This document shows positions 1,396 to 36,161 of a stretch of 38,771 bases of DNA, in pieces (the first letter of the stretch is position 1; each line of letters starts with the position of its first letter). Origin of the DNA: a virus (lineage: Duplodnaviria; Caudoviricetes); IMG/VR virus record IMGVR_UViG_3300016263_000482, positions 1 to 38,771 of that record, one strand, 5' to 3'. The notes beneath the pieces are model-generated. The model had not been told where the DNA came from. It searched no databases and saw only the letters and a list, made by a program, of their open reading frames with translations. The position numbers and the translations under genes are program-made.

Positions 1396-2221
1396 ACGGG
1401 GCATACTCCTTCTCGCTATGGGTCACCCGTATTATGCTCGGATGGCTTATAACCTACTTGTGAGCCTACGCTATCATGAGCCTGATATTGCCGTAGCGAT
1501 AGGAGTCAATGGTGAAGGATTTGAGATGCTTTCTAAGGATCAGCAGAAGCAGTTCAGCAAGGTCATCAAGCTGGATGACTATGCTGATCCATATCGAGCC
1601 AAGTTGGATGTAGATAAGATCACTCCCTTCAAGCAGACGCTTTTCTTGGATGTGGACATGGTCTGGAATAACTTCAAAAGCCCGACAGAACTGCTTGATG
1701 AACTCAATGGGAAAGATTTCGCCATCATCAATCGGGTGAGGGTATCCACACAGAATAGCATTCTATCGGCTTGGATTGACCTTCCAAAGGTCAAGGAAGC
1801 GTATGGATTCGATGAAGTCTATGATATCAGTTCTGAGCTTATGTACTGGGAAAAGGGTACTGATGTCTATAAGGTGGCTCGTAAGTATTACAAGAACATG
1901 AAGGTCGATGTGAAAGCTTTCGGTAATGGCTTACCGGATGAGGCTTACCTTATGATGGCTATCGAAGACTTGGGCATACGACTGCACCAGACCCCTTGGG
2001 AGCCTACTTATTGGCAACCAAGATGGAACCCCAAGGTTCACAATGCCGAGCATATCGCTGGGTTCTATGCCCTTTCTGTCGGTGGTGCCTATACTCTTCC
2101 ATTCATCAAGAAACTATATGACCGTCAGGTCGAACATACACACTATTCAACGGGGATGCCGGGTTCGCCATTCCAACTGATACCTAAATACCGTATATTC
2201 AAAGAACGCCGCAAAATCTAA
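1385..2221 (+). CDS. GT-A fold glycosyltransferase-like protein (GT8/nucleotide-diphospho-sugar transferase type)
   Basis: N-terminal GILLLAMG beta strand, K...TPF..TLFLDVD with a DxD motif, and a later PDE motif. ATG 1385 overlaps the upstream stop. Confidence 0.7.
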   Translation: MQDKRGILLLAMGHPYYARMAYNLLVSLRYHEPDIAVAIGVNGEGFEMLSKDQQKQFSKVIKLDDYADPYRAKLDVDKITPFKQTLFLDVDMVWNNFKSPTELLDELNGKDFAIINRVRVSTQNSILSAWIDLPKVKEAYGFDEVYDISSELMYWEKGTDVYKVARKYYKNMKVDVKAFGNGLPDEAYLMMAIEDLGIRLHQTPWEPTYWQPRWNPKVHNAEHIAGFYALSVGGAYTLPFIKKLYDRQVEHTHYSTGMPGSPFQLIPKYRIFKERRKI

Positions 2222-3957
2222 TGGCCATTATCGACATCAGTCAGTATCATCAGGGAGGAAAGAGGCACCAATTCTATGCTCCTTCCGTGAAGCAATTCCA
2301 AGACATCAAGACCCATGCGATGGGTGAATTTCCCCGTGAGTTGATTTCGGAACGTAGACCGGGAGAATCGGATACCATTAAGAGATATCGTGAGAAGATA
2401 TATGTCCCCAAGACTCAGGCTGCAGTATCAAAAATCTTTAATAGCTTACAGAAAATCCGTAAGAGTACTGACTATGTGATCCAATTTGATGAGATGGCAG
2501 TACCTCCGATAATCGCATCAGAGGAGCGTCCTTCGGAATATCTGATGTCTGACTTTCCCAAGTACACATCCATTGATAACTGGTTCTGGTCAGTATGCTT
2601 CAATCAATATCTGATGGATGCCAATGGGGTGGTAATAATCATGCCATTGAATCCTGAGAAGGCTGAAAATGAATATAGTAAGCCATATCCGTTCCTATTC
2701 AACAGTACTCAGATTTTGGATTATTCATATGGTGAATATTGTGTGGTCCTAAGTAATGAAAAGAGCCAGTATCAGAGCGGTAACCGCAAGTATCCAGGTG
2801 CTGTGTATTATAGCGTTGACAATGAGTCTATAGTAAAATACGAGCAGATCAATGCTAAAGGTGACTTCAGAGCTACCGAATACTTCCATGGTCTTTGCTG
2901 TATGCCAGTTATCAAGCTCAATGGTATAATCCTGCAAGATGGGGTTAGTGATATCCTCTATACTAGTAGAATCCATAGCATCGTGCCAAGTCTTAACGAG
3001 GCGGCCCGTGAATGGAGCGATCTGCAGGCAGAAGTGGTGCAACATATCCACTCAACCATGTGGGCTATTCAGGGTAAAGAATGTCGGACTTGTGCCGGTA
3101 CTGGTATTATCCCCAAGGCTGGCCAGTCTCCTATACAATGTGATGAGTGTAACGGTAAAGGTTTCTTTCCATTCAATCCTTACGAGCATATTACGATAAA
3201 GCCACCGACAATGGGTGAGGCTATGCCTCCAACTCCTCCGGCTGGCTATTTGACTAAACCTATCGATATCGCCAAGCTCCAGGATGCTCGTGTTCATGAC
3301 CATATCTATCATGCGCTGTCATCCTTGAATATGGAGTTCTTGGCTGCTGTTCCACTTAGTCAATCAGGGGTTGCCAAAGAAATCGACAGGGCTGAACTTA
3401 ATAACTTCGTCTATTCCATTGCAGAAGATTGCGTTAGGATTCTCGATGAACTTTGTGAGATAATAATCGACTATCGTTATGGTGGTCTTGTTCCTGATTA
3501 CGAAGAGAGGGAGAAGCTGGAGCCTATGATCACGGTTCCTGAGAAGTATGACATCCTTCCAGAGGGATATCTTGTCGATGAGATCAAGAAACTTCGTGAC
3601 AGCAGGGTCAACCCTACCATCATCAATGCTGCTGAGATGGAATACGCCAACAAGAAGTTTAATACCAATAAGAAGATCAAGCAGAAGCTACAGGATATGT
3701 ACGAGCTGGACCCTCTTGCTGGTATGTCATTGGATGAGATGATGGTAGCTTATTCCAATCAGGCGATCAATAAGAAGACCATGGTTATCCATAGTAACAT
3801 CCGTGAGTTCGTGGATGTGGCTCATGAGATGAATCCTGACTTCTTTATGATGGACATGATGGATAAGAAGGCTATCATTGGAGACATCGCAGATGCTTGG
3901 ATGACTGCTAACCGCCCGACTGAGATCGGCCAAATGAGTATCAGTGCGTCCGTCTGA
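2221..3957 (+). CDS. Portal protein with inserted DnaJ-type CxxCxGxG zinc-finger pair
   Basis: 578 aa, directly before the gpF-like and scaffold/capsid genes. Carries an SPP1-portal-like QSGVAKEIDR motif plus CRTCAGTG and CDECNGKG. Confidence 0.8.
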   Translation: MAIIDISQYHQGGKRHQFYAPSVKQFQDIKTHAMGEFPRELISERRPGESDTIKRYREKIYVPKTQAAVSKIFNSLQKIRKSTDYVIQFDEMAVPPIIASEERPSEYLMSDFPKYTSIDNWFWSVCFNQYLMDANGVVIIMPLNPEKAENEYSKPYPFLFNSTQILDYSYGEYCVVLSNEKSQYQSGNRKYPGAVYYSVDNESIVKYEQINAKGDFRATEYFHGLCCMPVIKLNGIILQDGVSDILYTSRIHSIVPSLNEAAREWSDLQAEVVQHIHSTMWAIQGKECRTCAGTGIIPKAGQSPIQCDECNGKGFFPFNPYEHITIKPPTMGEAMPPTPPAGYLTKPIDIAKLQDARVHDHIYHALSSLNMEFLAAVPLSQSGVAKEIDRAELNNFVYSIAEDCVRILDELCEIIIDYRYGGLVPDYEEREKLEPMITVPEKYDILPEGYLVDEIKKLRDSRVNPTIINAAEMEYANKKFNTNKKIKQKLQDMYELDPLAGMSLDEMMVAYSNQAINKKTMVIHSNIREFVDVAHEMNPDFFMMDMMDKKAIIGDIADAWMTANRPTEIGQMSISASV

Positions 3958-6587: not shown

Positions 6588-7703
6588 ATGGCTAACGGTT
6601 TAGCTCCCTATTTGTTGAATGACCTCAAGACGTTGGTAAGCGGTGCTTACCCCGGTCAAAAGGTCGATCTCAAAGGATTCCTCGCTATGCTCACCTCTGG
6701 TGCTGGCGCAAATCCTATCCAAACTTCTACGCTCGCAGGACACAAGAAAGAAGTCCGCTTCTGGTATCGCCAACGCAATACCAAGGCTCAGACAGACACT
6801 TCTGCTTCTTGCGATAACGTATTGACTCCTGCCCGTAAAGAATACACTGTTTCTGTGGGTAACACCCGCCAGATCGCATGGCATCTGCCTGACGAGCTGG
6901 TAGCTACCTACATGGAAGAGGCTTCTCAGCGTGTATCTGTTCCTGGAGGCCCTATCGCTGGTGCTTCTGCTGAACTGTTCGACATCATCATGAGTGGTGC
7001 TAACGGCATCCTCGAAGGTGTCAACGATGACCTGATCGGTCTGCTCACATGGGGTCGTAACAAGGTATCTGGTAGCAACGCTGCTGTGACCTTGAATATC
7101 TCTGCTGATAGCGGTGTCCAGAAGCTCACCACTGGTATGCCTAAGCTGTTGGGAGACTACAAGAAGAACAACCTCTCCGGTGTTCCTAACATCGTTGGAG
7201 CTGGCCTGTTCTACAACTACATCCTCTCTCAAGGCTTCAAAGGTATCGACCAGAGTGGAATGAACTCTCAGATCGCTGCAGCTGGTGTGAATTTCTTCGC
7301 TGACCAAGACTTCGCTGATACGGTCGGTGCAGATCACATCGGTGTGTTCGAGCCAGGTGCTGTTCAACTCGTTGAGTACCTTGAGTACACCGGCTTCAAG
7401 GCTGGTCAGAAGCCTGGTGCTTCCGAGTTCGGTGTCATCGCTCTGCCTGCTGTTTCTTCTGATGGCACTCTGTTGCCTGTGAAGTTCGACTGGCAGTTGA
7501 AGTACATCGATTGCCCTACCACTCTTACGGATGCATACAGCGGTTCTACCGCAACGTATCAGAAGGGCTGGAGCTTCATCATGAAGAAGGACTTCGGTCT
7601 GTTCCAGATCCCATCTGATTCTTACCGTAATGAGGACGGCAATATCGCTGTCAACGGAGCATTGCGCTATAGCGTGACCAACGCTTGCGATACCTGTTCC
7701 TAA
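6588..7703 (+). CDS. Major capsid protein
   Basis: 371 aa, A/G-rich, strongly biased codons, after scaffold; ends in ACDTCS. Confidence 0.8.
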   Translation: MANGLAPYLLNDLKTLVSGAYPGQKVDLKGFLAMLTSGAGANPIQTSTLAGHKKEVRFWYRQRNTKAQTDTSASCDNVLTPARKEYTVSVGNTRQIAWHLPDELVATYMEEASQRVSVPGGPIAGASAELFDIIMSGANGILEGVNDDLIGLLTWGRNKVSGSNAAVTLNISADSGVQKLTTGMPKLLGDYKKNNLSGVPNIVGAGLFYNYILSQGFKGIDQSGMNSQIAAAGVNFFADQDFADTVGADHIGVFEPGAVQLVEYLEYTGFKAGQKPGASEFGVIALPAVSSDGTLLPVKFDWQLKYIDCPTTLTDAYSGSTATYQKGWSFIMKKDFGLFQIPSDSYRNEDGNIAVNGALRYSVTNACDTCS

Positions 7704-7716
7704 TCGCTAATTAACG

Positions 7717-8652
7717 ATGGATTGTCTCATTGACTACATCGGACTTACCGGATGCGGGACCTCAAGTCCCGTATCCGGTTTGTTCATTAATTCCTTACCG
7801 GGGATATCCCTGAAGAGCATCGCCCAGATCGCTGATGCTGAACAACAGACCTACCTTGGAGTATGGGATGACGTTCAACTAAGAGCCACCAAGAAGCTCC
7901 AGTTGATGCTCAATGCCATGCTTTCCAAGCAGTATAAGGTCAAGACGGCTCGCTATAGCATCCGTACCAAAGAAGAGGCTCAGTCAATCAATACGGGGGC
8001 TTATTCTGCTCCAGCCTATAAATTTGAATCATACTGCTCAAGTCCTTTGAGCTATCATCATATCGAGTCTATTACCTGTAGAAAGGTAAATAATAACTCT
8101 ACCATTGGGGTAACGGTCTACAATGCTGAAGATAATGTTATCCTCTATAATGCCTCCTTCGCAACCAATGGGGATACCAATCAAACGGTAAACCTAAACG
8201 AGGACTTCTACTATCCAGAAATCATTGTTAAGGTGACCATAAGTGGTGGCACTTATTATCTTGATGAATTTAAGTCCATAGACTTTGGTGGTGGTAATAT
8301 CAAGGCCGGAGTCTTTTCATCTAATACATTTACCCAGTATAACTATTCATTCGGTATCTCCATCAATTACGGATTACGTTGTTCCTTGGATAACCTAGCC
8401 TGCGATAGTAAGGACCTCTTTGCCCTTCCTCTATGGTACATCCTCGGTTCGGAGTTGATGATGGAGCGTATTGTATCGGAGCGTATCAATAAGTGGACTG
8501 TTGACCGTAAACAGGCTGAGGAGCTGAAGGCTTATTATGATGCAGAAGCCGAGAAGGCATTGGGTCAAGCCATTGCAGGTATCAGCATCAGCGACTATGA
8601 CTGTTGTATCCAGTGTGACCCAACCATCGGAGTTAAGGAGGCTTATCTGTGA
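7717..8652 (+). CDS. Head-tail adaptor/connector-like structural protein
   Basis: Position after capsid; helical N- and C-terminal parts around a beta insert; Cys clusters at both ends. Confidence 0.55.
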   Translation: MDCLIDYIGLTGCGTSSPVSGLFINSLPGISLKSIAQIADAEQQTYLGVWDDVQLRATKKLQLMLNAMLSKQYKVKTARYSIRTKEEAQSINTGAYSAPAYKFESYCSSPLSYHHIESITCRKVNNNSTIGVTVYNAEDNVILYNASFATNGDTNQTVNLNEDFYYPEIIVKVTISGGTYYLDEFKSIDFGGGNIKAGVFSSNTFTQYNYSFGISINYGLRCSLDNLACDSKDLFALPLWYILGSELMMERIVSERINKWTVDRKQAEELKAYYDAEAEKALGQAIAGISISDYDCCIQCDPTIGVKEAYL

Positions 8653-9128
8653 TATCCATATCAAGTAATCTGAACGAAGTAACTACCCGATTGGTGGCGA
8701 AGTTGGAATCCGTCAAGGACCCCAATGGAGCCGCTCAGGATCGTATGCTTCGTCAGGTGGCTTCAGATACCTTGGCTCAGGTCAAATACCGTATCCATAC
8801 AGATGGAAAAAACAGCGAGGGTACGCCCATCGGTGAGTATTCCAATGCCTATTTGAAGGTCAGGAAAAGCCGTAAATACAACCGAGGCGAATCCACGAAA
8901 GTAATCCTTTCACTCACGGGTCAGATGGAGAATGATTTCAGTATAGTCTCCAATACGGCTGGTCGTTATGGTCTTGGATTTAAGAATACTCTCAATGCTG
9001 AAAAAGCTGAGTGGTTGCAAGCTCGTTCTGATTATGGTCGCATCTACGACCTGACAGAAGCCGAGAAGGAACACGCTAATCTTGTCGCTAACGATTTCAT
9101 AGCTCAATATCTCAATGAACCTTCTTGA
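8649..9128 (+). CDS. Virion morphogenesis / neck protein (tail completion type)
   Basis: RIHTDGK..G..IG.YS..Y...R and L.LTGQM motifs typical of this family. Confidence 0.6.
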   Translation: MISISSNLNEVTTRLVAKLESVKDPNGAAQDRMLRQVASDTLAQVKYRIHTDGKNSEGTPIGEYSNAYLKVRKSRKYNRGESTKVILSLTGQMENDFSIVSNTAGRYGLGFKNTLNAEKAEWLQARSDYGRIYDLTEAEKEHANLVANDFIAQYLNEPS

Positions 9129-9696
9129 TAAGATAGTCGATATCATCAATGGCCGACTCATGGACGGTGCCTTGGAAGAGCAAGCCTTCCAGGAATCAGC
9201 TATCTATGGCCTATCCTATCTATCTGCTCCAAAGGATGACTCCGTACAGCGACCCTATACCTTCGATGGTGACAATGTGGTTGGTATTGAGGTTAATGAT
9301 ATCTATGAGTTCAGCATCTATCACAGATGTCTTGGGATGACATTTAGAGAATCACCTAGTTTTGGAGACGGCAATGGTCCAGTGACCATGGTATGTGATA
9401 TGTTCTGTGTGGTCTATGCAGACCGGTATAAGAGCGGATATACTCAAGAAGACCTTATATTGAAAGTATCAGCAGGACTGATGGGTCAGCTCACACCTAC
9501 CGAGCTGGGTAACTCAGGACTGCAGAAAGTAAAGATAACTGTGCAAAGGGCGAATAATAATTCCGCACAGGTATTTCAGGGCGAATATGGGAACGAGGCT
9601 AATTGCCCCTTCCAATTAAACACTGTCTATTTTGGTATCGGTTACCAGATAGAAATTACCGCACACAGCGCTTGCTTAGTCTGCGCTGAATGTTAA
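9115..9696 (+). CDS. Putative tail terminator/neck protein
   Basis: Position immediately before the tail tube gene; ends in ACLVCAEC. Confidence 0.5.
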   Translation: MNLLDKIVDIINGRLMDGALEEQAFQESAIYGLSYLSAPKDDSVQRPYTFDGDNVVGIEVNDIYEFSIYHRCLGMTFRESPSFGDGNGPVTMVCDMFCVVYADRYKSGYTQEDLILKVSAGLMGQLTPTELGNSGLQKVKITVQRANNNSAQVFQGEYGNEANCPFQLNTVYFGIGYQIEITAHSACLVCAEC

Positions 9697-9711
9697 TCGA
9701 CAAAAAAAACC

Positions 9712-10281
9712 ATGTCAGTTTATTATCCTTCCTCCAACTGTGGCGGTGGTTCAATTCCTGATTACTACTGTAATCCGTGTCTTGACAGTTCTACCATCGA
9801 GTATGGTCGTATCCGTTCCATCGCCCTCATCAAGAATACCTACATCAATACGTTGATGGCCAACCCGACATCATCATCTGTATGGTCAACCGGTATCTCT
9901 AACGCTAACATCATCGTCATCTACCTTACCCAAGGATCTTATGACGGCGGCACCACTGGCGAATTGACCGGATTCGGTGACTCTGCTACCTACAACGGTA
10001 ACACCACCCACACCCTGACCTATAAGGATCCGTTCAGTGCTGATAACTGCGATTTCTATAACGCTATCCGTAACTCTACGGACTACACGATCGCATTCCG
10101 CACAAGCTCCAAAGTTTGGTTTGCTGAAGAGCCTTGTACCTTCACCCCGAAGAACGCTGTTGCTGATGATATCAACTCAGCTATGGCTTGGGAAGTAGGT
10201 GTCAAATGGACCAACTCAGACAGCCCTTGTGGCTATGAGACTCCAGCTGGTATCTTCGATAGCTGTTACATCCATTCCTAA
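9712..10281 (+). CDS. Putative major tail tube protein
   Basis: 189 aa, T/S/G-rich, high-expression codon bias like the capsid gene, A-rich leader, followed by a strong hairpin. Confidence 0.65.
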   Translation: MSVYYPSSNCGGGSIPDYYCNPCLDSSTIEYGRIRSIALIKNTYINTLMANPTSSSVWSTGISNANIIVIYLTQGSYDGGTTGELTGFGDSATYNGNTTHTLTYKDPFSADNCDFYNAIRNSTDYTIAFRTSSKVWFAEEPCTFTPKNAVADDINSAMAWEVGVKWTNSDSPCGYETPAGIFDSCYIHS

Positions 10282-14309: not shown

Positions 14310-14597
14310 ATGAATGAAGATGACGTACTTGGCGTTCTCTATAAGTTTAGCAACCCTGTCCTACTGCTTATTGTGGGTTATTTCTTGCGTTCAATTCTAC
14401 AAACTATCAAGAAACTTCAAGAAGATTTCTCACAGTTTCGAGTGGACAATGCCGGACATGGAATCATCATGCAAGAACACAAAGAGCGACTTGAAAAAAT
14501 CGAAAAAAAGCTCGACCAGTACGACCATGACTTCAAGTTATTCTTTATGGACTACGGCTCGACACTTAAAAAAGCAAAGAAACAATTTGAATCCTAA
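14310..14597 (+). CDS. Single-TM + coiled-coil protein (holin/antiholin-like)
   Basis: N-terminal TM (PVLLLIVGYFL), LEKIEKKLD coil, at the start of the lysis cluster. Confidence 0.55.
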   Translation: MNEDDVLGVLYKFSNPVLLLIVGYFLRSILQTIKKLQEDFSQFRVDNAGHGIIMQEHKERLEKIEKKLDQYDHDFKLFFMDYGSTLKKAKKQFES

Positions 14598-14609
14598 AAC
14601 CATAAGCAA

Positions 14610-14978
14610 ATGAAAAACAAGACACTACTCTGGCAAGTATGCTCATTGATCATCGTTCTACTCGGAATCTATGGTCAACAATTTGGAGAAACCGGACAGA
14701 AATGGATAGGCATAGTATCGTTCTCCATTACTGCCTTCCTGAATTCCAAGATCATGTCAACTGGTGAGTGGCCAAAGGGATGGTCAACAGCCATGTGGGC
14801 CACCCAGATCTTCGGACTCTTGGTTCAGGTGGTCAACTTCATGGTTGAAAAGGCTATCCTTGATCCTCATGTGGTCAACGTGATGATCATGACCATTAAC
14901 GTATTCTTGGCAGCCTTCGTTAAAGATTACGGCTCAGGATCAGTCGCTATTGATACCGCTGTCCAACGGAAAAAGTAA
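14610..14978 (+). CDS. Multi-pass membrane protein, putative holin
   Basis: About 4 hydrophobic segments, basic C-terminus, upstream of spanin and endolysin. Confidence 0.55.
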   Translation: MKNKTLLWQVCSLIIVLLGIYGQQFGETGQKWIGIVSFSITAFLNSKIMSTGEWPKGWSTAMWATQIFGLLVQVVNFMVEKAILDPHVVNVMIMTINVFLAAFVKDYGSGSVAIDTAVQRKK

Positions 14979-14996
14979 TTCTCGGTTGCTGTTGAT

Positions 14997-15035
14997 AGGG
15001 GGCGGTTTTTGATGTTTGTCCGCCCCCTTATTTTC
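14997..15035 (+). terminator. Terminator-like hairpin
   Basis: AGGGGGCGG / CCGCCCCCT stem followed by TATTTTC. Confidence 0.6.
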
Positions 15036-15048
15036 TTAAATTAAGACC

Positions 15049-15576
15049 ATGAAGAAGACCATAGCCATACTCCTTATTGCATACCTGATGACATCCTGTA
15101 GGCTCCTAAAGCCACAGACCATCTATATTACCAAGGATTCCCTAGTTACCAAGACCGAGACAATCATCAAGGATAGCATCATACGTCTTCCGGGTGATAC
15201 TATCAGATTCACCATACCCATCCACGATACCGTCTTCATCGTCAAATCAGCAAGGTCTTCTTCCACAGTCCAAGTCAAAAGCGGTAAGATATCCGTGACC
15301 AATGCCTGTGATGAAAAGGATATCATCATCAGCAAACTCCGCTCTGAGATTCTCAAGTACGAGACCAGTTCATCCGATTCCGTCCAGACCATAACTCAGA
15401 AGGTCAAGTACGTCCCAACAGCTTACAAAGTCTTTACATACGGCTTTTGGGCCTTGGCTCTCCTATTAGTCGGTCTTTTCTTAGCCAATAAGAACATATG
15501 GGTACTGGTAGCCACTACTGCAGCCAGTGCTATCAAATCCATCAGCAAGAAGAAAAGTGGCAAGGACTCTGTATGA
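15049..15576 (+). CDS. Putative unimolecular spanin
   Basis: N-terminal lipobox (LMTS-C), beta-rich middle, C-terminal TM followed by a Lys-rich tail. Confidence 0.7.
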   Translation: MKKTIAILLIAYLMTSCRLLKPQTIYITKDSLVTKTETIIKDSIIRLPGDTIRFTIPIHDTVFIVKSARSSSTVQVKSGKISVTNACDEKDIIISKLRSEILKYETSSSDSVQTITQKVKYVPTAYKVFTYGFWALALLLVGLFLANKNIWVLVATTAASAIKSISKKKSGKDSV

Positions 15577-16039
15577 TAAGCTTTTTGACCGCTATGGTAA
15601 CCCCATGGAGGACCCCAAAGGATTCCAAGCCGATTGGATGATCTTTTGGAACGTACCTATGTGGATTGATACCCATATACCGGCACTACCCAATCGACTC
15701 TATATCAATAAAGACCTAATTCCTGTCATCGAGGATACATTGAATAGGCTCATCAGTCTTGGAGCCTATAAGGAGATTCATACCTTCGATGGCCTTTTTA
15801 ATATCCGATATATCCGAGGTAGTAAGACCCGTCTATCCATCCATTCTTGGGGATTGGCTATCGATCTGAATGCCTCCAATAACCCTCTTGGGTTGACCAA
15901 ACAGCAGGCTATCGCAAAAGGTCTATGCCCATTTAGTAACCTATTTGATGAAGTATGGAAGGATGCCGGATGGACTCCAGGCATCAACTGGAAGCGTCCC
16001 GATGGGATGCACTTTGAATTTACCAGCCATCTCAAATGA
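15557..16039 (+). CDS. Endolysin, peptidase M15 family
   Basis: R..RG...SIHSWGLAIDLN and DGMHFE zinc-binding motifs; GTG 15557 is the likely start. Confidence 0.9.
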   Translation: MARTLYDKLFDRYGNPMEDPKGFQADWMIFWNVPMWIDTHIPALPNRLYINKDLIPVIEDTLNRLISLGAYKEIHTFDGLFNIRYIRGSKTRLSIHSWGLAIDLNASNNPLGLTKQQAIAKGLCPFSNLFDEVWKDAGWTPGINWKRPDGMHFEFTSHLK

Positions 16040-27831: not shown

Positions 27832-28491
27832 ATGCGTTGCATAATCAACTATTCATCAGGCAGATACGTCCCCTCCGCTATCCGCCAAGCTGGTAAAATA
27901 AGGGAGGTTGGATACCTGGGCGAGTACATCCAATACCTCAATACCCTGCCTCCCAACTGCTATCCGCACCACGAAATACCATACCACTTCAAACCGATGG
28001 CGTTCTTGGATGCTTATAATCAAGGATATAGGCAGATATTATGGATGGATGCACCGGTTTACCCTGCCAAACCACTTGACCCCCTCTTTGAGACCATCGA
28101 ACGTGATGGCTACCTGATCCTTCTAAATGGATGGAGTAATGGGGAGTGGACATCGGACCGGGCCTTGCTTCCGCTTGGCATGAGCCGGGAGGCGAGCTTC
28201 AGTCAGCCCCACGCCATGGCTTGCGTCATGGGCTTTGATCTGAGCCGGACCGATGTGTTGATGGTATTCAACAAGTGGATGCTATCAGCCATGGATGCCT
28301 ATCCGGGTCCATGGAAAAACGAGAACGGTAACTGCTCCAATGATGACCGTGTCTTGGGTCATCGGCACGATCAGAGTGCTATCAGTGCCTTCGCCTATCA
28401 GGCAGGATGGCACTTCACACCGACCAGTGACGGAAAGATTTTGACATACGGGAACGAAGAAGGATATTTGTTGTATTCAAAACCAGTATAA
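27832..28491 (+). CDS. Glycosyltransferase-like protein (WMDA ... HRHDQS)
   Basis: FKP.A..A...GY..ILWMDA and GHRHDQS motifs of GT-A-like families. Confidence 0.65.
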   Translation: MRCIINYSSGRYVPSAIRQAGKIREVGYLGEYIQYLNTLPPNCYPHHEIPYHFKPMAFLDAYNQGYRQILWMDAPVYPAKPLDPLFETIERDGYLILLNGWSNGEWTSDRALLPLGMSREASFSQPHAMACVMGFDLSRTDVLMVFNKWMLSAMDAYPGPWKNENGNCSNDDRVLGHRHDQSAISAFAYQAGWHFTPTSDGKILTYGNEEGYLLYSKPV

Positions 28492-29090
28492 TGTATAGCC
28501 AGAACCAAGAAGAGGATGTAATCATCAACAACCTACCAAAGACCGGGACGGTCTTGGACATCGGAGCCTACGATGGGGTAGTCTTTTCCAACAGCAGAGC
28601 CTTGGTTGAGCAGGGATGGAAGGCTATTCTTGTCGAGCCGAGTCCGATTGTGTTTAGTCAATTACTGAAGAATACCGAGGACTACAAGGATCAGTTGACG
28701 CTGGTGAACTGTGCTGTGACGGCTGGTCCCTCAGGCTTTGAGACCTTCTATGATTCGATGGGTGACGCTATCAGTGGCTATGATCCTGCCCATCTGACCA
28801 AGTGGAACGGTCATCTGACATGGAGGCCGATGATCATTCAGACGGTTAACATCAAGGCACTGCTTGGTCATATTGGTATGGACTATGACTTTGTGACAAT
28901 CGATGTGGAGGGTACGAATCTTGAGATACTGATGGCAATGCCATGGGGTGATATGCCCAAGGTACAGATGGTATGTGTGGAGTATGATAACAAGGCTCCA
29001 CAGATGACGGACTTCATGGCGCAGTTTGGTTTCTACCTGGTCCATCGTAACGGGGAGAACCTTATATTCAAACGGAAAATTGATGCCTAA
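28491..29090 (+). CDS. FkbM-family SAM-dependent methyltransferase
   Basis: YSQN.E, LDIGAYDG...SNS, LVEP and IDVEG motifs. Confidence 0.9.
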   Translation: MYSQNQEEDVIINNLPKTGTVLDIGAYDGVVFSNSRALVEQGWKAILVEPSPIVFSQLLKNTEDYKDQLTLVNCAVTAGPSGFETFYDSMGDAISGYDPAHLTKWNGHLTWRPMIIQTVNIKALLGHIGMDYDFVTIDVEGTNLEILMAMPWGDMPKVQMVCVEYDNKAPQMTDFMAQFGFYLVHRNGENLIFKRKIDA

Positions 29091-29370
29091 GAGCAAGAAG
29101 AAAGAAGGTTTTGAGAGTTTCTTGGAGTTCCTGATGGATCGGGGAGCTGCCAAGGCGGAGCGGATAATGATGACCATGGACGATGACGAGTTCATGAAGT
29201 ATTATGCAACGATGATGGAGTTTGCGGCTCCTAAGAAGCAGAGGATAGAACAGGAAACCAAACAGGATACGGTCCATCGGATCGTTGTCAACTGGGATGA
29301 TAATAGATTACCCGATAGCCCTACAACGCCCCCACTTCAATCAGGACAAGGTCCTGAAGACGGCTGCTAG
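29083..29370 (+). CDS. Putative terminase small subunit
   Basis: Directly upstream of and overlapping TerL; EF..PK.QR.E...I.V.W C-terminal pattern. Confidence 0.55.
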   Translation: MPKSKKKEGFESFLEFLMDRGAAKAERIMMTMDDDEFMKYYATMMEFAAPKKQRIEQETKQDTVHRIVVNWDDNRLPDSPTTPPLQSGQGPEDGC

Positions 29371-30520
29371 GTTCAACGTACTCAAATGTGGGAGGCGGTT
29401 CGGGAAGTCCACGCTTTCGATATACAATGCCACACGGGCGTTGATGGATGGGAAGACCTGCGCTTATTTCGCTCCGACCTACAAGGATGCCAGTGAATGG
29501 TGGAACGAAATCTCCGCAAGGCTTGCGTCCATAATCTCCGCAAAGGATGCCACGGTCAAACAAATCAAAACTATCACGGGTGGTAAGCTGGATGTGTGGT
29601 CGTTTGATAACCCCGATAGCGGTAGGGGTCGCAAGTACCACATGGTACAGATTGATGAGTGTGAGAAGGGTATGAACTTCGAGAAGGCATGGAAGCAGAG
29701 TATCCGTCCGACACTGACGGACTATCAAGGATCAGCATGGTTCTATAGCACCCCCCAGTTCGGTAAGACTTTCTTCAAGGAGCTGTTCGGGTATCAAGAA
29801 AAGCTTGATGATTGGCGGTCGTGGAAGTTTACGACCTACGACAATCCTTACATCAAGAAGGAGGAGGTGGATGCGGCCAAGGCGGAACTGGACCCTCTGA
29901 CCTTTGCTTGCGAGTATCTGGCGGAGGATGTGGACCTGAGCCATAAGCCATTCGCCTACTGCTTCGACAAGACCCGGCACATCAGGCCAGTGCAGTATGA
30001 CAACGGTCACTATCTGCATCTGTCGTTCGACTTCAACGTGGACCCGATTACCTGTGTTGCTAGTCAGTTTATCAATGGCGAGATACGCTTCATCAAGGAG
30101 TTCAGGCTATCCAATAGTAATATCTACGAGTTATGTGACCGGATCAATGTGACCTATCCTGGAGCGGCGTTGCTGGTTACGGGTGATGCCAGCGGTCAGG
30201 CTCGGTCGGCTTTGACTGTGGGTAATCTGAACTACTACTCAGTGATCCGTGAGAAGCTAAGGCTCAATGTCAATCAGCTCAAGGTTCCATCTATCAATCC
30301 GGCTATCTCGGATAGTCAGGTTCTATGCAACAGCCTGCTTCAGAACTATAACGTAGCCTTCGACCCCTCTATGGTTTACACGATTGAGGACTTGATGTAC
30401 GTTGAGATGACGGATGGGGGCGAGATAGACAAGAGCAAGGACAAGCACAGGAGCCACTTGCTTGATGCTGTACGATATACATTCAACACATTCCATAAAC
30501 ACTTACTGCATATCCGATGA
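29297..30520 (+). CDS. terL: Terminase large subunit
   Basis: CGRRFGKS Walker A, RGR...QIDE Walker B, STP, nuclease SFDFNVDP, GDASG and H.LDA.RY. Confidence 0.95.
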   Translation: MIIDYPIALQRPHFNQDKVLKTAARFNVLKCGRRFGKSTLSIYNATRALMDGKTCAYFAPTYKDASEWWNEISARLASIISAKDATVKQIKTITGGKLDVWSFDNPDSGRGRKYHMVQIDECEKGMNFEKAWKQSIRPTLTDYQGSAWFYSTPQFGKTFFKELFGYQEKLDDWRSWKFTTYDNPYIKKEEVDAAKAELDPLTFACEYLAEDVDLSHKPFAYCFDKTRHIRPVQYDNGHYLHLSFDFNVDPITCVASQFINGEIRFIKEFRLSNSNIYELCDRINVTYPGAALLVTGDASGQARSALTVGNLNYYSVIREKLRLNVNQLKVPSINPAISDSQVLCNSLLQNYNVAFDPSMVYTIEDLMYVEMTDGGEIDKSKDKHRSHLLDAVRYTFNTFHKHLLHIR

Positions 30521-31338
30521 AGATTCTAGTACAATTCCCGACCAGAGGACGGCCTGAGAAATTCGCCAAGACCCTGCATACCTATCAAACGACACGGACA
30601 ACCAATATGGTCACGTTCATGATTACTATCGATAGGGACGATGAGCGGATGAATAATCCAAGGACGATGGCTCAGTTGCGTATGTGGTCTAACTTGACAA
30701 TCAATCTCATTGAGCCGAAGGGTAAGATAGGGGCTATTAATGCCGGGGTCGGTGAGGTTTCCAAAGATTACGACATCATTCTGTTGGCATCGGATGACAT
30801 GATACCTACTGGCAAGGGATGGGATCAGCGAATCATAGACGATATGACAAGGCTTTATCCCGATACAGATGGGGTGCTTTGGTACAACGATGGATATGTG
30901 GGTAAGAAGCTTAATACGCTGTGCATCTTAGGCACTAAGTATTACCGCCGATTCAATTACATATACCATCCTGATTATAAGGCTTTATGGTGCGATAATG
31001 AGTTCATGGATGTGGCCAATCATTTGAACAAGCAGACATACATCAACGATATAATCATCAGGCATGAACACCCAACACACGGACATGGAAAGAACGACAG
31101 ACTCAATATCAGAGACAACCAACTCTACTATATCGACAAGGCCATATATGAAAGAAGAAAATCAGAAGGATTCGGCCTTGCTGTCGATTCTTATTCCTAC
31201 CCTACCGGAACGGTCGGCGATGCTGGAGAGGTTGTTAAGGCAGATCAACAGCCAGCTGGAAAACCTAAACGCAAGAGAAAAGGTACAGGTGTGCATCTTG
31301 TCGGACAATCGGGAGCTGACAATCGGAGCCAAGCGTAA
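30517..31338 (+). CDS. Glycosyltransferase family 2-like
   Basis: FPTRGRP, ID.DD, A.N, ASDDM, WCDNE and H.HP motifs. Confidence 0.85.
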   Translation: MKILVQFPTRGRPEKFAKTLHTYQTTRTTNMVTFMITIDRDDERMNNPRTMAQLRMWSNLTINLIEPKGKIGAINAGVGEVSKDYDIILLASDDMIPTGKGWDQRIIDDMTRLYPDTDGVLWYNDGYVGKKLNTLCILGTKYYRRFNYIYHPDYKALWCDNEFMDVANHLNKQTYINDIIIRHEHPTHGHGKNDRLNIRDNQLYYIDKAIYERRKSEGFGLAVDSYSYPTGTVGDAGEVVKADQQPAGKPKRKRKGTGVHLVGQSGADNRSQA

Positions 31339-31768
31339 TCAGTTAATGAATAATGCAAAGGGCAAGTATGTAGCTTTTGTCGATGATGATGACGAGATAG
31401 GCAATGACTATCTGGCTAGTATCCTTAATGCTATTGAGACTGAACAACCCGATGTGATTGGAATGACTGGTATTATGAGGTGGCAGAGGACACGAAAGAT
31501 GAGGACGGATCATCGGTTCACCCATTCCATTGAGCATAAACGATGGTGGGATAGGGGATCAGGTATAAGGACTGAGTACTTTAGACCTCCCAATCACTTA
31601 AATCCTATGAAAAGGGAGATAGCGGTGCAATTTCCGTTCCTTGAGGTATCCTTTGGTGAGGATAGGGACTGGAGTGAGAGGATATCGGCTTCCGGGATGC
31701 TGAAGAAGGAGGTAAAGATTCCTGCTGTTATTTATTACTACAACTTCAATCCATATAAAAATAGTTGA
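31148..31768 (+). CDS. Glycosyltransferase family 2
   Basis: LSILIPT, GAKRN....AKGKYVAFVDDDD and GED.DW motifs. Confidence 0.9.
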   Translation: MKEENQKDSALLSILIPTLPERSAMLERLLRQINSQLENLNAREKVQVCILSDNRELTIGAKRNQLMNNAKGKYVAFVDDDDEIGNDYLASILNAIETEQPDVIGMTGIMRWQRTRKMRTDHRFTHSIEHKRWWDRGSGIRTEYFRPPNHLNPMKREIAVQFPFLEVSFGEDRDWSERISASGMLKKEVKIPAVIYYYNFNPYKNS

Positions 31769-31776
31769 TACTTTTG
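31769..31776 (+). promoter_or_regulatory. Bacteroidota -7 box TACTTTTG ahead of the CxxC gene trio
   Basis: Exact TAnnTTTG, 4 nt before ATG 31781. Confidence 0.5.
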
Positions 31777-31780
31777 TGAT

Positions 31781-32137
31781 ATGAGCATCAATATCTGTGA
31801 GTTATGTCATGTAATTGAGGTACCGGCTTGTCAATCAAGTTATTCTATAGACATTGGCTTATCGCATACCATATTCAGATGGATGTTTTTGGAGGATGAG
31901 AATGGTAATGTCTTTGTCCAGAAGGGCAAGACGCTGAGTACGGGTAACAATCCATGGGTCATTGATACGACTGATTATCCTGAAGGTATGTTCAATCCTT
32001 ATTCAGGTAGTTATACTCTGACATGGTCTAATAGTAATGATATCAATAGTCAGATTAACCTCACTATCAATGGACAACAGTATCCATGCGTGATATTGGT
32101 ATTCAAAGACATCGAGCAATTGGTTGATATGGTATGA
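31781..32137 (+). CDS. Small beta-rich protein with N-terminal CELC motif
   Basis: ICELC...AC and YPC; ATGA coupling. Confidence 0.65.
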   Translation: MSINICELCHVIEVPACQSSYSIDIGLSHTIFRWMFLEDENGNVFVQKGKTLSTGNNPWVIDTTDYPEGMFNPYSGSYTLTWSNSNDINSQINLTINGQQYPCVILVFKDIEQLVDMV

Positions 32138-32493
32138 TGGAGTGGCTAGAGCTATTCTGTTTGTTGATTGCGAACTCATTGGTTATCTTCGGGATAAACA
32201 AGGCAACGTACTTCGAGTACTGCCACCCGGATGAGGACCGAGCATTCTGCACAGATGAAGGCGTAGATAAAGACAGCCGGATGGTCCTGTATAAGCTCCG
32301 GCTATGGTCGCTCCAGGTACTTGGAGACTTCTGGTCCAAGCCTTTGTTCGTCTGTCCTCCATGCATGGCATCGGTATGGGGTACCGCATTCTATATTTTT
32401 ACAGGCTATCCATTATGGATGTGGCCAGTATATATCTTAATGTTATCAGGGTTAGTCACACTAATCAACTCAAAAGTCAATGGAGGTTCTTAA
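32134..32493 (+). CDS. Three-TM membrane protein with loop Cys pair and CPPC (DUF1360-like; VKOR/DsbB-like arrangement)
   Basis: TM1, then C30-x8-C39 loop, KPLFVCPPCMASVWG, TM2, TM3. Confidence 0.7.
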   Translation: MMEWLELFCLLIANSLVIFGINKATYFEYCHPDEDRAFCTDEGVDKDSRMVLYKLRLWSLQVLGDFWSKPLFVCPPCMASVWGTAFYIFTGYPLWMWPVYILMLSGLVTLINSKVNGGS

Positions 32494-32770
32494 AGAAGCG
32501 TTATTAAGGAACGGATTCGAGTACATCGGTCCATGCAAGGTCTGTGGTGGCAGGGGTTTTCTATATCGTAGAGGCCGAGCAGAGGCTAAGATCAAGAAGG
32601 ATCAGAATATGAACGAGGTCCATATCACGTTGACCGGCTATCGTGATGATGGGATGCGGATAGTGCAGACGCTGATTCAACGCAAGAACGACCTCCATAT
32701 GGGGAATATCGATAATATCATACAATCTAATCTAGGACTCAATGTCAACTCCACAGCAGACAACCAGTGA
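32480..32770 (+). CDS. Small basic protein with CKVCGG motif
   Basis: Overlaps both neighbours; single CxxC. Confidence 0.6.
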   Translation: MEVLKEALLRNGFEYIGPCKVCGGRGFLYRRGRAEAKIKKDQNMNEVHITLTGYRDDGMRIVQTLIQRKNDLHMGNIDNIIQSNLGLNVNSTADNQ

Positions 32771-33353
32771 ACCGCTACCATGGGTGGTGGATGAAGGTCA
32801 TGTAATAGTACCGGCATTCGTATCGGAGGGGGTACAGTATTACATGATGAAGGATATCTTCAACAGCTTTGCTGGGAGGGCATTGGATGCCATGGCCATC
32901 TACGAGAAGTGGTCGCTGAGATCGTCTCCCGATTTCATGAGGGGCTGGCTGAGTGCATTGGAGAATACGATCAATAGCAACCCCATCAAGATTACCGAGG
33001 TGGCCGAGATGCTGAAGATCATGAGGGAGCGGTTGGACTTTGCCTTGCCTACGGAGGGGTTGATATGGGAGTTGGCTGCGGTGGCGTTCTTTGATCGTAA
33101 CGAGTCACCGTATCGGTACGATCCTGAGTATGCGAAGGACAAGATAGCTCGCTGGAAGAAGGATATGGGCCTGCCTGATTTTTTTTTCAGATGCCCGTTA
33201 AAGGATATAGTGAGCTTACCCGACTTATCGGAGGAAGGTTTAGCGAATTATTTGATGGTTACATCGGCGGTCGATCAGAAACATATCGAGACGGTGCTAT
33301 CAAAGCTCTCGTCACAACAGCAGAGAGCCGTTTCTTCATTGGTGTTAGAATAA
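32742..33353 (+). CDS. Putative tail assembly chaperone (gpG-like)
   Basis: Upstream of tape measure; contains a T9 slippery run. Confidence 0.6.
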   Translation: MSTPQQTTSEPLPWVVDEGHVIVPAFVSEGVQYYMMKDIFNSFAGRALDAMAIYEKWSLRSSPDFMRGWLSALENTINSNPIKITEVAEMLKIMRERLDFALPTEGLIWELAAVAFFDRNESPYRYDPEYAKDKIARWKKDMGLPDFFFRCPLKDIVSLPDLSEEGLANYLMVTSAVDQKHIETVLSKLSSQQQRAVSSLVLE

Positions 33354-33463
33354 GGACCGAGTTCGGTCTTGATGCTAACAAACTGAATCTATATGAATAC
33401 TATCTGCTTATCGAGCAGTTAGATAAAATGAGCCGTACCAGTGGCAGAAACAGTCGTAATTAA
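33179..33463 (+). CDS. -1 frameshift extension of tail chaperone (gpGT-like)
   Basis: T9 at 33179-33187; -1 frame open to 33463, ending KLNLYEYYLLIEQL and overlapping the TMP start. Confidence 0.55.
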   Translation, partial: FFFQMPVKGYSELTRLIGGRFSELFDGYIGGRSETYRDGAIKALVTTAESRFFIGVRIRTEFGLDANKLNLYEYYLLIEQLDKMSRTSGRNSRN

Positions 33464-36161
33464 TATCGAGGCGAATACTCAGGGGTTACAGTCAACCATT
33501 GACTTGCTTGTCAAATTGGGGCAAGTGGAGAAGAAGGTTGCGGATGATTTTAGGAAGACCAATGAGGCAAATGTCAAGTCCCTTCAGCAGGGTGTGACTC
33601 AGGCTACAGGTCAATTCCAGAAGCTTGATACGGCCATTAGCAATATCGGTACTGATAATAAGTTGGCAGAGAGTCTTGATGCTACGGCTCCGATAGTCAA
33701 GACAACCAATAGCATTAAGTCGTTCAAGCAAGAATTAAAAGATGCTACTGCTGAAGCTCTTTCTTTGGCTGCTCAATTTGGAGAATTGGATCCACGGGCA
33801 GTAGCTGCTGCTAAAAAGGTTTCAGAATTAAGACAAACTGTTGAGGATACCAATCGAACCATTAAGGCTCTTGATCCTGGTGAGAAATTTAGGACAATCC
33901 AGAATCTTGGAGGTGCTATAGCTGGAGCATTTCAGGTGGCTACTGGTGCCTTGCAGGCATTCGGTGTGGAATCTGAGACAGCTACTAAACTAGCTCAACA
34001 ATTCCAAGGAGCATTGAATATTGTAGGTGGATTACAGCAGTTAGCAGATCTGAAGGATCAGTTGGGTGCTGTAAGGGCGGCACTTGGTTTGACAACAGTG
34101 GCTAAGGAGGCTGATGCTGTGGCTAGTACAGTGGCTACGAATGCTAATAGGGCTTTCGCTGCATCATTATCAGCAACAGGTATCGGGGCTGCCATAGTAG
34201 TACTTGGAGCTTTGGCATATGCCATATCTCAAATAGGAGTAGCTTCAAAACAAAGCAAGGAGGATACTGATAATCTTACAAATAGCACTAAGAAATTAGC
34301 TGATGCTAGAAAGGCATTACAAGAATCCAAGAATGCTGAGTTGGATGCTGATTTGAAGCTGAAAGTAATTAGGAAAGAAATAACACAAGCAGAAGCTGAT
34401 CGTATTCAATTATCAAGGAAATCAAGTGAAGTTTACGTTGAGAATCAAAAAACTCTTTCAAAGGCTAATCAAGACTTAGCAAAGACAACTAAAGAAATTG
34501 CAGCAATTGAAAGTGAGTTGGCAATTCAACGAAAAAATGTAGATGATGCGCCAGTTCTACAGAGATTTATCAAAATAAACGAGGACCGCCTTGCTGTATT
34601 AAAGAAAACATCAGATCAACAAACAGCTATTGTTAAAGCTACTAATGATAAATTAATATCTGACGATAATAGATACCGTACTGAGTTTGCTGTATCAAAG
34701 GAGGGGGAAGCCAATGATGCCAAGAAGGCTGAAGAAGAAAAGAGAAAGGCAGCCGCAGAAGCTAATCAGAATCGTCTAAAAGATGTAAAGAAGACGGCTG
34801 AAGAGATAGCCAAAGAAGAAAAGGATGTACGAGACCGATTGTTCAAGGAATCTCTGGCTCAAGACTTAGCCAATTTGGATAATTATCTGACAGATTCTTT
34901 GCAGTTGATTACCAATAACTATAATGAGCGTGATAAGATAGCCAAGGAATCTCTCAATAAAGAGTTAATGGCTAATCTTGAGAATCTGCAAAAAGGTCTG
35001 ATAACCTTTGAGCAATACGAGGCCGAAAAATCAAGAATATCTCAGAGCCAACCTGATCTTACTTTTGAGCGTCAGAAGGCTATCGCTGATCAAGAGTTGG
35101 CTGGTCTTGAATTACGCAAGATGAATCTGGAAGACTATGGCCAGAGTACGGTTGATGTGGAGAATGCCATAGCTAAAAAGAAGGAAGAGATCAATGTACT
35201 TGTCACTAATAATCAATTGGCAGAGGATGCCAAGAGATTGAAATCGGCAGAAGATACTGCGAAGGCCAAATTGGAAGCCGAGAAGAAGGTTGCTGATCTT
35301 ACCAATGAACTTAATAAGAAGATAGGTGAGGAAGCGGAGGCTCTTTTATTCCAAGGCCTTAATGATGCTTTTGAGACACAGTTACAGAACATCAATGATC
35401 TCAAGGATGAGCAGTTGCAAGCGATAGATGATGAGAATAAGAAGATAGAGGAGGCTTATGCGAATAGGTTGATAGGTAAGAGGCAGTTCGAGCTGGAGCA
35501 GGAGCGATTAACCAAGGAGAGGATAAAGGCTGAAGAACAAGCTGAAAAAAAGCTCAATAGTATCCGTAAGAAGCAAGATATTGCTAACAAGGCTAAGGCT
35601 CTCTTTGAGATATATCTTAATACCAGAAGATCAGTGACAGCTATTCAGGCTGATCCAACCATTCCAACGGTAGCCAAGCCCCCTTTGATTAGTGCTAGCA
35701 TCATCTTTGGTGGCATTCAAGCGGCCTCTGTATTGGCTCAACCTCTTCCCAAGTACAAGAAGGGTACACTTGCTGTCATGGGTAAGTCAGAAGACATCTC
35801 ATATGAGGGTGGTAGAGGTACTATGAGGGTGGTAGGATCAGGTTCAGAGGACACAGAATTGGCCCTCCTACAGCCTGGAGAAGCGGTTATCCCTACGGAT
35901 ACCAACCGAAAGTACCATCCGGCTATCAAGGCTATCTATGAGAATAAGATAAAGCCTCAAGACATCAATCAATTCGTCACTATGAGGCTCAGGGGAGACA
36001 TCAGCCGTGATACTAAGGCAGAAGGCCCTGTCATGGCCAAGATGGATATTGCAGATTTATATGCCTTGGGACGCATTATGAAGAAGAATGATGGTGTAAC
36101 GGTCAAGAATATCAAGGAATTAGCGAGTATATTTGCAGATAGTTATAATCCACGCCGATAG
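33441..36161 (+). CDS. Tail tape measure protein
   Basis: 906 aa Ala/Gln/Lys-rich helical protein with TM-like segment; C-terminal KY.KG...G.G.ED...LLQPGEAVIP. Confidence 0.85.
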   Translation: MAETVVINIEANTQGLQSTIDLLVKLGQVEKKVADDFRKTNEANVKSLQQGVTQATGQFQKLDTAISNIGTDNKLAESLDATAPIVKTTNSIKSFKQELKDATAEALSLAAQFGELDPRAVAAAKKVSELRQTVEDTNRTIKALDPGEKFRTIQNLGGAIAGAFQVATGALQAFGVESETATKLAQQFQGALNIVGGLQQLADLKDQLGAVRAALGLTTVAKEADAVASTVATNANRAFAASLSATGIGAAIVVLGALAYAISQIGVASKQSKEDTDNLTNSTKKLADARKALQESKNAELDADLKLKVIRKEITQAEADRIQLSRKSSEVYVENQKTLSKANQDLAKTTKEIAAIESELAIQRKNVDDAPVLQRFIKINEDRLAVLKKTSDQQTAIVKATNDKLISDDNRYRTEFAVSKEGEANDAKKAEEEKRKAAAEANQNRLKDVKKTAEEIAKEEKDVRDRLFKESLAQDLANLDNYLTDSLQLITNNYNERDKIAKESLNKELMANLENLQKGLITFEQYEAEKSRISQSQPDLTFERQKAIADQELAGLELRKMNLEDYGQSTVDVENAIAKKKEEINVLVTNNQLAEDAKRLKSAEDTAKAKLEAEKKVADLTNELNKKIGEEAEALLFQGLNDAFETQLQNINDLKDEQLQAIDDENKKIEEAYANRLIGKRQFELEQERLTKERIKAEEQAEKKLNSIRKKQDIANKAKALFEIYLNTRRSVTAIQADPTIPTVAKPPLISASIIFGGIQAASVLAQPLPKYKKGTLAVMGKSEDISYEGGRGTMRVVGSGSEDTELALLQPGEAVIPTDTNRKYHPAIKAIYENKIKPQDINQFVTMRLRGDISRDTKAEGPVMAKMDIADLYALGRIMKKNDGVTVKNIKELASIFADSYNPRR

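Follow-up and report, generated by a model that had tools for sequence, protein, structure and literature searches.

A conserved DUF1360-like membrane protein of a tailed phage as a candidate cytoplasm-facing thiol oxidase for virion proteins

The best single explanation of the small membrane protein encoded by ORF2 is that it works as a cytoplasm-facing thiol oxidase for virion proteins. This is a tentative reading, which we place somewhat below an even chance; most of the remainder is divided among the handling of a metal, a function as anchor or sensor, and a reductase. As judged from the sequences compared here, the firm core appears real: one conserved, predicted inward-facing CxxC membrane protein together with a small partner carrying a Cys pair. 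The window, namely the whole stretch of DNA that was analysed, is a virus record of 38,771 bases with an estimated completeness of 76%.

The sequence-only reading had singled out three consecutive, overlapping genes on the + strand, each with a CxxC, and these are confirmed as ORF1 (31781-32137; 118 amino acids, C6-E-L-C9), ORF2 (32134-32493; 119 amino acids, with Cys at positions 9, 30, 39, 74, and 77), and ORF3 (32480-32770; 96 amino acids, basic, C19-K-V-C22). Their placement in the morphogenesis region also holds: they lie between the gene of the terminase large subunit, the upstream anchor of the module (29285-30520, + strand; phrog_2, E 5e-31), and a long, Cys-free, tape-measure-like ORF downstream (33441-36161). 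Between the module and the tape measure, a conserved gene on the + strand (32742..33353) probably encodes a tail assembly chaperone, according to its position. The order terminase, ORF1, ORF2, ORF3, chaperone-like gene, and tape measure recurs among the relatives. The record further encodes a portal protein and a head morphogenesis gene, and position and length suggest that the major capsid, connector, and tail tube genes correspond to 6588..10281 (+ strand); Pfam and PHROGs gave no family match backing these last labels. A run of three CxxC genes is by itself not rare in this window, where 9 of the 56 ORFs carry the motif, so that approximately 0.2 three-gene runs are expected by chance (hand estimate).

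The box described ahead of the trio, TACTTTTG (31769..31776, + strand), is present and matches TAnnTTTG, which we take to be the -7 promoter element of Bacteroidota; in 10 of 21 relatives, a copy of the pattern lies no more than 46 nt ahead of ORF1. However, the box alone is unremarkable, because there are 25 matches across both strands of the window (13 on the + strand and 12 on the - strand). The box and the link to crAss-like phages would together suggest a host among the Bacteroidota. A scan of bacterial genomes found no copy of the ORF2 family.

ORF2 behaves as a core gene of this phage group. All 33 near-complete relatives picked by their terminase have it, a count that stands apart from two fragments (13% and 24% complete). 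Thirty of these relatives are newly found records of at least 28 kb (30 of 30 positive, 23 by the genome search and 7 by local HMM). The other three are complete records from which the gene first seemed absent; each (3 of 3) has a divergent copy, relocated to where the head-tail block ends. The genome-level search is too insensitive for absence, since crAss001 and ten true positives escaped it, and absence calls therefore relied on local HMM searches. No related phage without ORF2 was found among the relatives checked, and therefore the group provides no internal contrast for virion Cys.

The profile search with ORF2 gathered 757 representatives at an E value of 0.001 or better, and 150 sequences were aligned. 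Every one of these (150 of 150) has C74, C77, and M78, and G20, P70, and S80 are nearly invariant; the residues between C74 and C77 are highly variable, with 55 motif variants. The earlier description of a three-TM protein with the CxxC starting TM2 is consistent with the AlphaFold model (pLDDT 92), with helices at residues 2-24, 75-90, and 94-115 and a helical segment at 53-73. With three-helix boundaries set by the analyst, the Lys/Arg bias puts the loop and the C-terminus inside in 150 of 150 relatives (mean +6.9). This predicts an N-out, loop-in topology in which the CxxC faces the cytoplasm, the side already proposed for it. The seven Lys or Arg reported for the Cys loop are indeed found between residues 23 and 69, although nine Asp or Glu are also found there. 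A four-helix subfamily with an extra N-terminal helix was observed as well (loci L260-L271 and L112-L173; G006-G021); several of its members have a Lys-rich N-terminus, by which the loop would stay on the same side of the membrane.

A four-cysteine, VKOR-like design, as first imagined, fails because the loop Cys pair is specific to a clade. C30 is present in 13 of 150 relatives and C39 in 17, the loop Cys are absent in 87 of 150, and the pair is kept in only 6 of 65 viral loci; judging from the alignment, it is a clade-specific insertion, and it would represent an optional add-on outside the core chemistry. Hence, the ORF2 family does not conserve the Cys pair that VKOR has in the loop after TM1. 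The VKOR fold has four helices with the CxxC at TM4, whereas in the ORF2 model the CxxC is at the second of three TM helices, and the VKOR fold is absent among the matches listed. In DsbB, the CxxC starts TM2, a conserved Arg comes after it, and a second Cys pair is found in a later loop. In ORF2, the CxxC likewise opens TM2, on the opposite predicted side of the membrane, but the motif is followed by M-A-S-V-H/W and by no conserved later Cys, so neither the Arg nor the second pair is found. The likeness to DsbB and VKOR consists of a CxxC that starts a membrane helix, whereas their core of four helices differs from the three helices of ORF2, which has no conserved second Cys pair. Foldseek PDB and VIA searches with ORF2 gave nothing above background among the matches listed (best Z 5.7), and VKOR and DsbB are absent among the best 50 listed. 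Also, the module proteins had no match to Erv or thioredoxin folds among the matches listed, a profile search of solved structures gave 0 matches, and tblastn of ORF2 against cultured phages gave none. As for the predicted cytoplasm-facing orientation, the available part of a report on an inward-facing archaeal VKOR, ApVKORi, offers a precedent (10.64898/2026.03.26.714578).

The relationship with DUF1360 suggested for ORF2 is supported by profile-level homology over a three-helix core that includes the CxxC. Common to DUF1360 (PF07098; for example crAss001 gp97, Rosebush gp11, and cluster B1 gp7) and ORF2 are TM1, a helical loop, a CxxC-x3-W/H that starts TM2, and TM3; the ORF2 group differs in its own KPLxxCxxCMAS motif and, in this clade, in the added C30/C39 loop. 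Atlas language-model features assign ORF2 to DUF1360 (0.91, 10/10 family agreement), and an ORF2 family HMM built without crAss001 gp97, a protein of 139 amino acids annotated as DUF1360, finds it with E 7.5e-6. HHalign gave 96% (E 2e-9) between the ORF2 group and a CPWC-type viral profile, and also 87% (E 4e-6); the CPWC-type profile matches Rosebush gp11 with E 1.6e-25. The motif scan yielded 120 viral loci, 111 of them with a small hydrophobic CPWC protein, and because the comparison set was chosen by motif, the match at the CxxC is partly circular. Foldseek of ORF2 against viral models listed DUF1360-labelled proteins at E above 1 and a crAss001 protein of 139 amino acids, the length of gp97. 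Pfam gave no match to ORF2: the best relative reaches 17.2 bits against PF07098, below its cut-off of 21 bits, and 1 of 150 relatives has a Pfam match at E 0.005. Given the Atlas, HMM, and HHalign links, ORF2 is therefore described as DUF1360-like but below the Pfam cut-off. In Bacillus, yjcA, a bacilli-specific sporulation gene, is presumably linked both to DUF1360 and to Cys-rich crust genes. The literature naming the family, in the portions available, describes no function for it.

The neighbors of ORF2 were counted in 66 terminase-picked loci with ORF2 and its flanks, which were not dereplicated. ORF3 adjoins ORF2 in 64 of them (CxC in 49, CxxC in 15), and C19 and C22 are invariant in 25 of 25 sequences. 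Its predicted structure follows an alpha-beta5-alpha pattern, in which a turn between strands holds the two Cys. A weak match to phrog_1004 (E 0.012) is the sole Pfam or PHROGs match across the three ORFs, and fold searches with ORF3 gave generic matches only, with no Erv or thioredoxin among those listed. The prediction of an ORF2-ORF3 complex scored 0.00, which carries no weight for or against pairing. ORF1 adjoins ORF2 in 53 of the 66 loci, has no family match in Pfam or PHROGs, and its Atlas model is of low confidence. All 22 sequences compared keep C6 and C17, whereas C9 is variable, and by eye C103 varies alongside it; such a pattern fits structural disulfides better than it fits a redox motif. 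ORF1 is likely a beta-rich virion component or substrate and not a CxxC redox carrier. Small proteins that start with a CxC include Rosebush gp14 (DUF7196) and Milano gp5, but of 32 CPWC lineages only 8 had an ORF with a loose CxC pattern nearby, and 4 of 16 negative mycobacteriophages had one too.

These counts indicate that the CxxC trio is not fixed as a unit, and the idea of a poxvirus-like relay of three CxxC proteins is not supported: the three redox-motif proteins do not always occur together, C9 of ORF1 varies, and ORF3 mostly has a CxC. Poxvirus relays of the E10/A2.5/G4 type employ FAD-linked Erv and thioredoxin folds, unlike the alpha-beta5-alpha ORF3 and the substrate-like ORF1. 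Poxviruses and other large DNA viruses do encode a route to cytoplasmic disulfides in their virions, according to the available part of PMC13576161.

If ORF2 is a thiol oxidase, its CxxC, at the cytoplasmic start of the second helix, would put disulfides into virion proteins during assembly. The motif would cycle between dithiol and disulfide, and an acceptor in the membrane, for example quinone, could take up the electrons. With three helices, fewer than DsbB or VKOR, the protein is possibly oligomeric. ORF3 may be a soluble shuttle or a small cross-linker, and ORF1 and the connector and tube proteins would be substrates. A wider proposal is that DUF1360 constitutes a third class of membrane thiol oxidase, distinct from both DsbB and VKOR and directed toward the cytoplasm, which from crAss-like to Rosebush-like tailed phages, with a small CxC partner, cross-links virions inside the reducing cell; we regard this as rather doubtful.

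The capsid and tail proteins had been portrayed as Cys-rich, which is true of only some. Cys amounts to 1.07% overall in the window and to 2.9-3.7% in ORFs 7717, 9115, and 9712, which makes these Cys-enriched ORFs candidate substrates, but the putative major capsid protein has 4 Cys in 371 residues and the tape measure 0 in 906. In this phage group, the putative capsid proteins have 4-11 Cys, and the genes after the tape measure have 1.1-3.7% Cys in 16 relatives (no tape measure was called in 4 of 20). Tail genes downstream of the tape measure in loci L093, L096, L135, and L143 have 3.1-3.7% Cys, with up to 33 Cys in 976 amino acids, which places them among the genes richest in Cys in this analysis.

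Co-occurrence of the family with Cys-rich virions gives a mixed picture, with crAss001 and Rosebush in favor. In crAss001, which encodes gp97, the available part of PMC10172136 describes solved disulfides in the tail and portal vertex, so a family member does occur in a phage with solved virion disulfides; its DUF1360 gene is on the opposite strand to the virion block and far from it. Besides its DUF1360 gene, this phage has another gene of redox type, gp5 (L069:2271-2468; 65 amino acids, 7 Cys), whose annotation is putative ferredoxin-thioredoxin reductase. Rosebush has the family gene and, like Jabs, two major capsid proteins; its hexamer capsid protein has 8 Cys in 675 residues, the first gene after the tape measure 15 in 478, and its structural arm has the highest Cys content among 17 phages (1.04% versus 0.30-0.94%). 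The 16 other mycobacteriophages, chosen by the analyst to span clusters, have no detectable copy in the ranges searched locally (Omega, 1-60 kb only; for Rosebush, 1-40 kb). In family-negative mycobacteriophages, none of 14 major head proteins labelled by PHROG exceeds 2 Cys (range 0-2; 7 in 5,420 residues, hand sum), and four family-negative phages have phrog_4971 tail tube proteins with 2-3 Cys; three positive loci contain partial head proteins of phrog_777, with 2, 2, and 6 Cys. A position-matched comparison of Cys content, with only 3 positive loci, was not significant (p = 0.15). An unmatched test (p = 3e-6) was void, because non-structural genes already average 1.2% Cys and confound it. 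The positives represent about three lineages, and since phrog_777 or phrog_779 is shared by 9 of 31 positive viral lineages, these are not independent.

On the other side, local HMM searches detected no family member in Milano, Pam3, or NBD2, the last being, we assume, the source of the cross-linked gp39 tail tube. In the accessible part of the literature, Milano has a disulfide-linked virion, the most disulfide-rich of those examined, and the Jabs preprint, in the part available, cites virion disulfides for Pam3. Moreover, the accessible part of PMC13576161 describes disulfides that form in purified tail tubes, engineered Cys pairs included, so that an enzyme may not be needed. The link between the family and disulfide-rich virions is then suggestive only. 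The virions of Jabs, Milano, crAss001, Pam3, and the gp39 tail tube are possible products of such an enzyme; virion disulfides in the phage reported here are putative. Directly upstream of the Milano terminase, gp4 is a membrane protein with a CPCC, and gp5 is small, virion-associated, and carries MGCGC (L066:3913-4287). As an analogue, gp4, with its CPCC before one TM helix, scored no higher than shuffles and was discarded; the pair is possibly analogous to the module and not detectably homologous.

Among the alternatives to a thiol oxidase, the Cys pairs of ORF2 and ORF3 could serve to hold a metal (Zn, Cu, or Fe-S) or pass it on at the inner face of the membrane, the virion disulfides then arising from air oxidation at or after lysis. 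The CxxC with the invariant Met78 and His/Trp82 as potential ligands, the CxC/CxxC turn between strands in ORF3, and the disulfide-linked virions in phages without a detectable family copy would all fit. Nonetheless, each chain has only two invariant Cys, the residues between them vary widely (the 55 variants), and no metal-binding family was matched consistently, which makes this explanation unlikely. We also give a low probability, of a similar order, to ORF2 being a membrane anchor or a factor for the timing of assembly or lysis, whose CxxC would be structural or a redox sensor with no catalysis on virion proteins. In its favor, ORF2 is a small membrane gene adjoining terminase and tail genes, the crAss001 copy sits outside the virion block, and the Jabs authors, in the part of their preprint available, propose that the bonds form during or after lysis. 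Against it, small genes of membrane or lysis type appear to be present elsewhere in the window, near 14310-16039, and among distant phage groups no feature is better conserved than the Cys pair.

Less probable still is the same chemistry in reverse, with a reductase or isomerase by which Cys-rich virion subunits would stay reduced, or retain the right pairing, until they are assembled. It accounts equally for the conservation, topology, and co-occurrence, and the CxC of ORF3 recalls isomerase-like CGC motifs. However, host thioredoxin and glutaredoxin systems already keep the cytoplasm reducing, so a membrane enzyme working in that direction would be less needed.

The statement that no such pathway is known in tailed phages agrees with the available part of PMC13576161, according to which disulfide-forming machinery has not been described in phages, and with that of the Jabs preprint, which treats the source of approximately 1,700 virion disulfides, and hence the catalyst, as an open question. 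No report of a phage-encoded thiol oxidase was found in the literature searched, which included few subscription papers. A candidate of 100-140 amino acids in cultured phages (crAss001, Rosebush, and cluster B) makes the Jabs question directly testable. If the thiol oxidase reading is true, DUF1360 gains a function and could provide a minimal tool with which disulfides are formed in the cytoplasm of bacteria.

Finally, other features of the window were observed. Two overlapping glycosyltransferase-like ORFs adjoin the terminase gene (30517-31768), the second with a start later than 31064 as relatives suggest, and an FkbM methyltransferase gene is located nearby (28491-29090); these are possibly genes for virion or DNA modification. 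Directly before the tape measure, the chaperone-like ORF is followed by an overlapping ORF of 90 amino acids (32742-33463), and a long T run near 33178-33187 gives the two a likeness to a programmed frameshift pair. Also, the portal protein (2221-3957) has an insertion at residues 288-315, a zinc-finger segment of DnaJ-like type (CxxC...CxxC).
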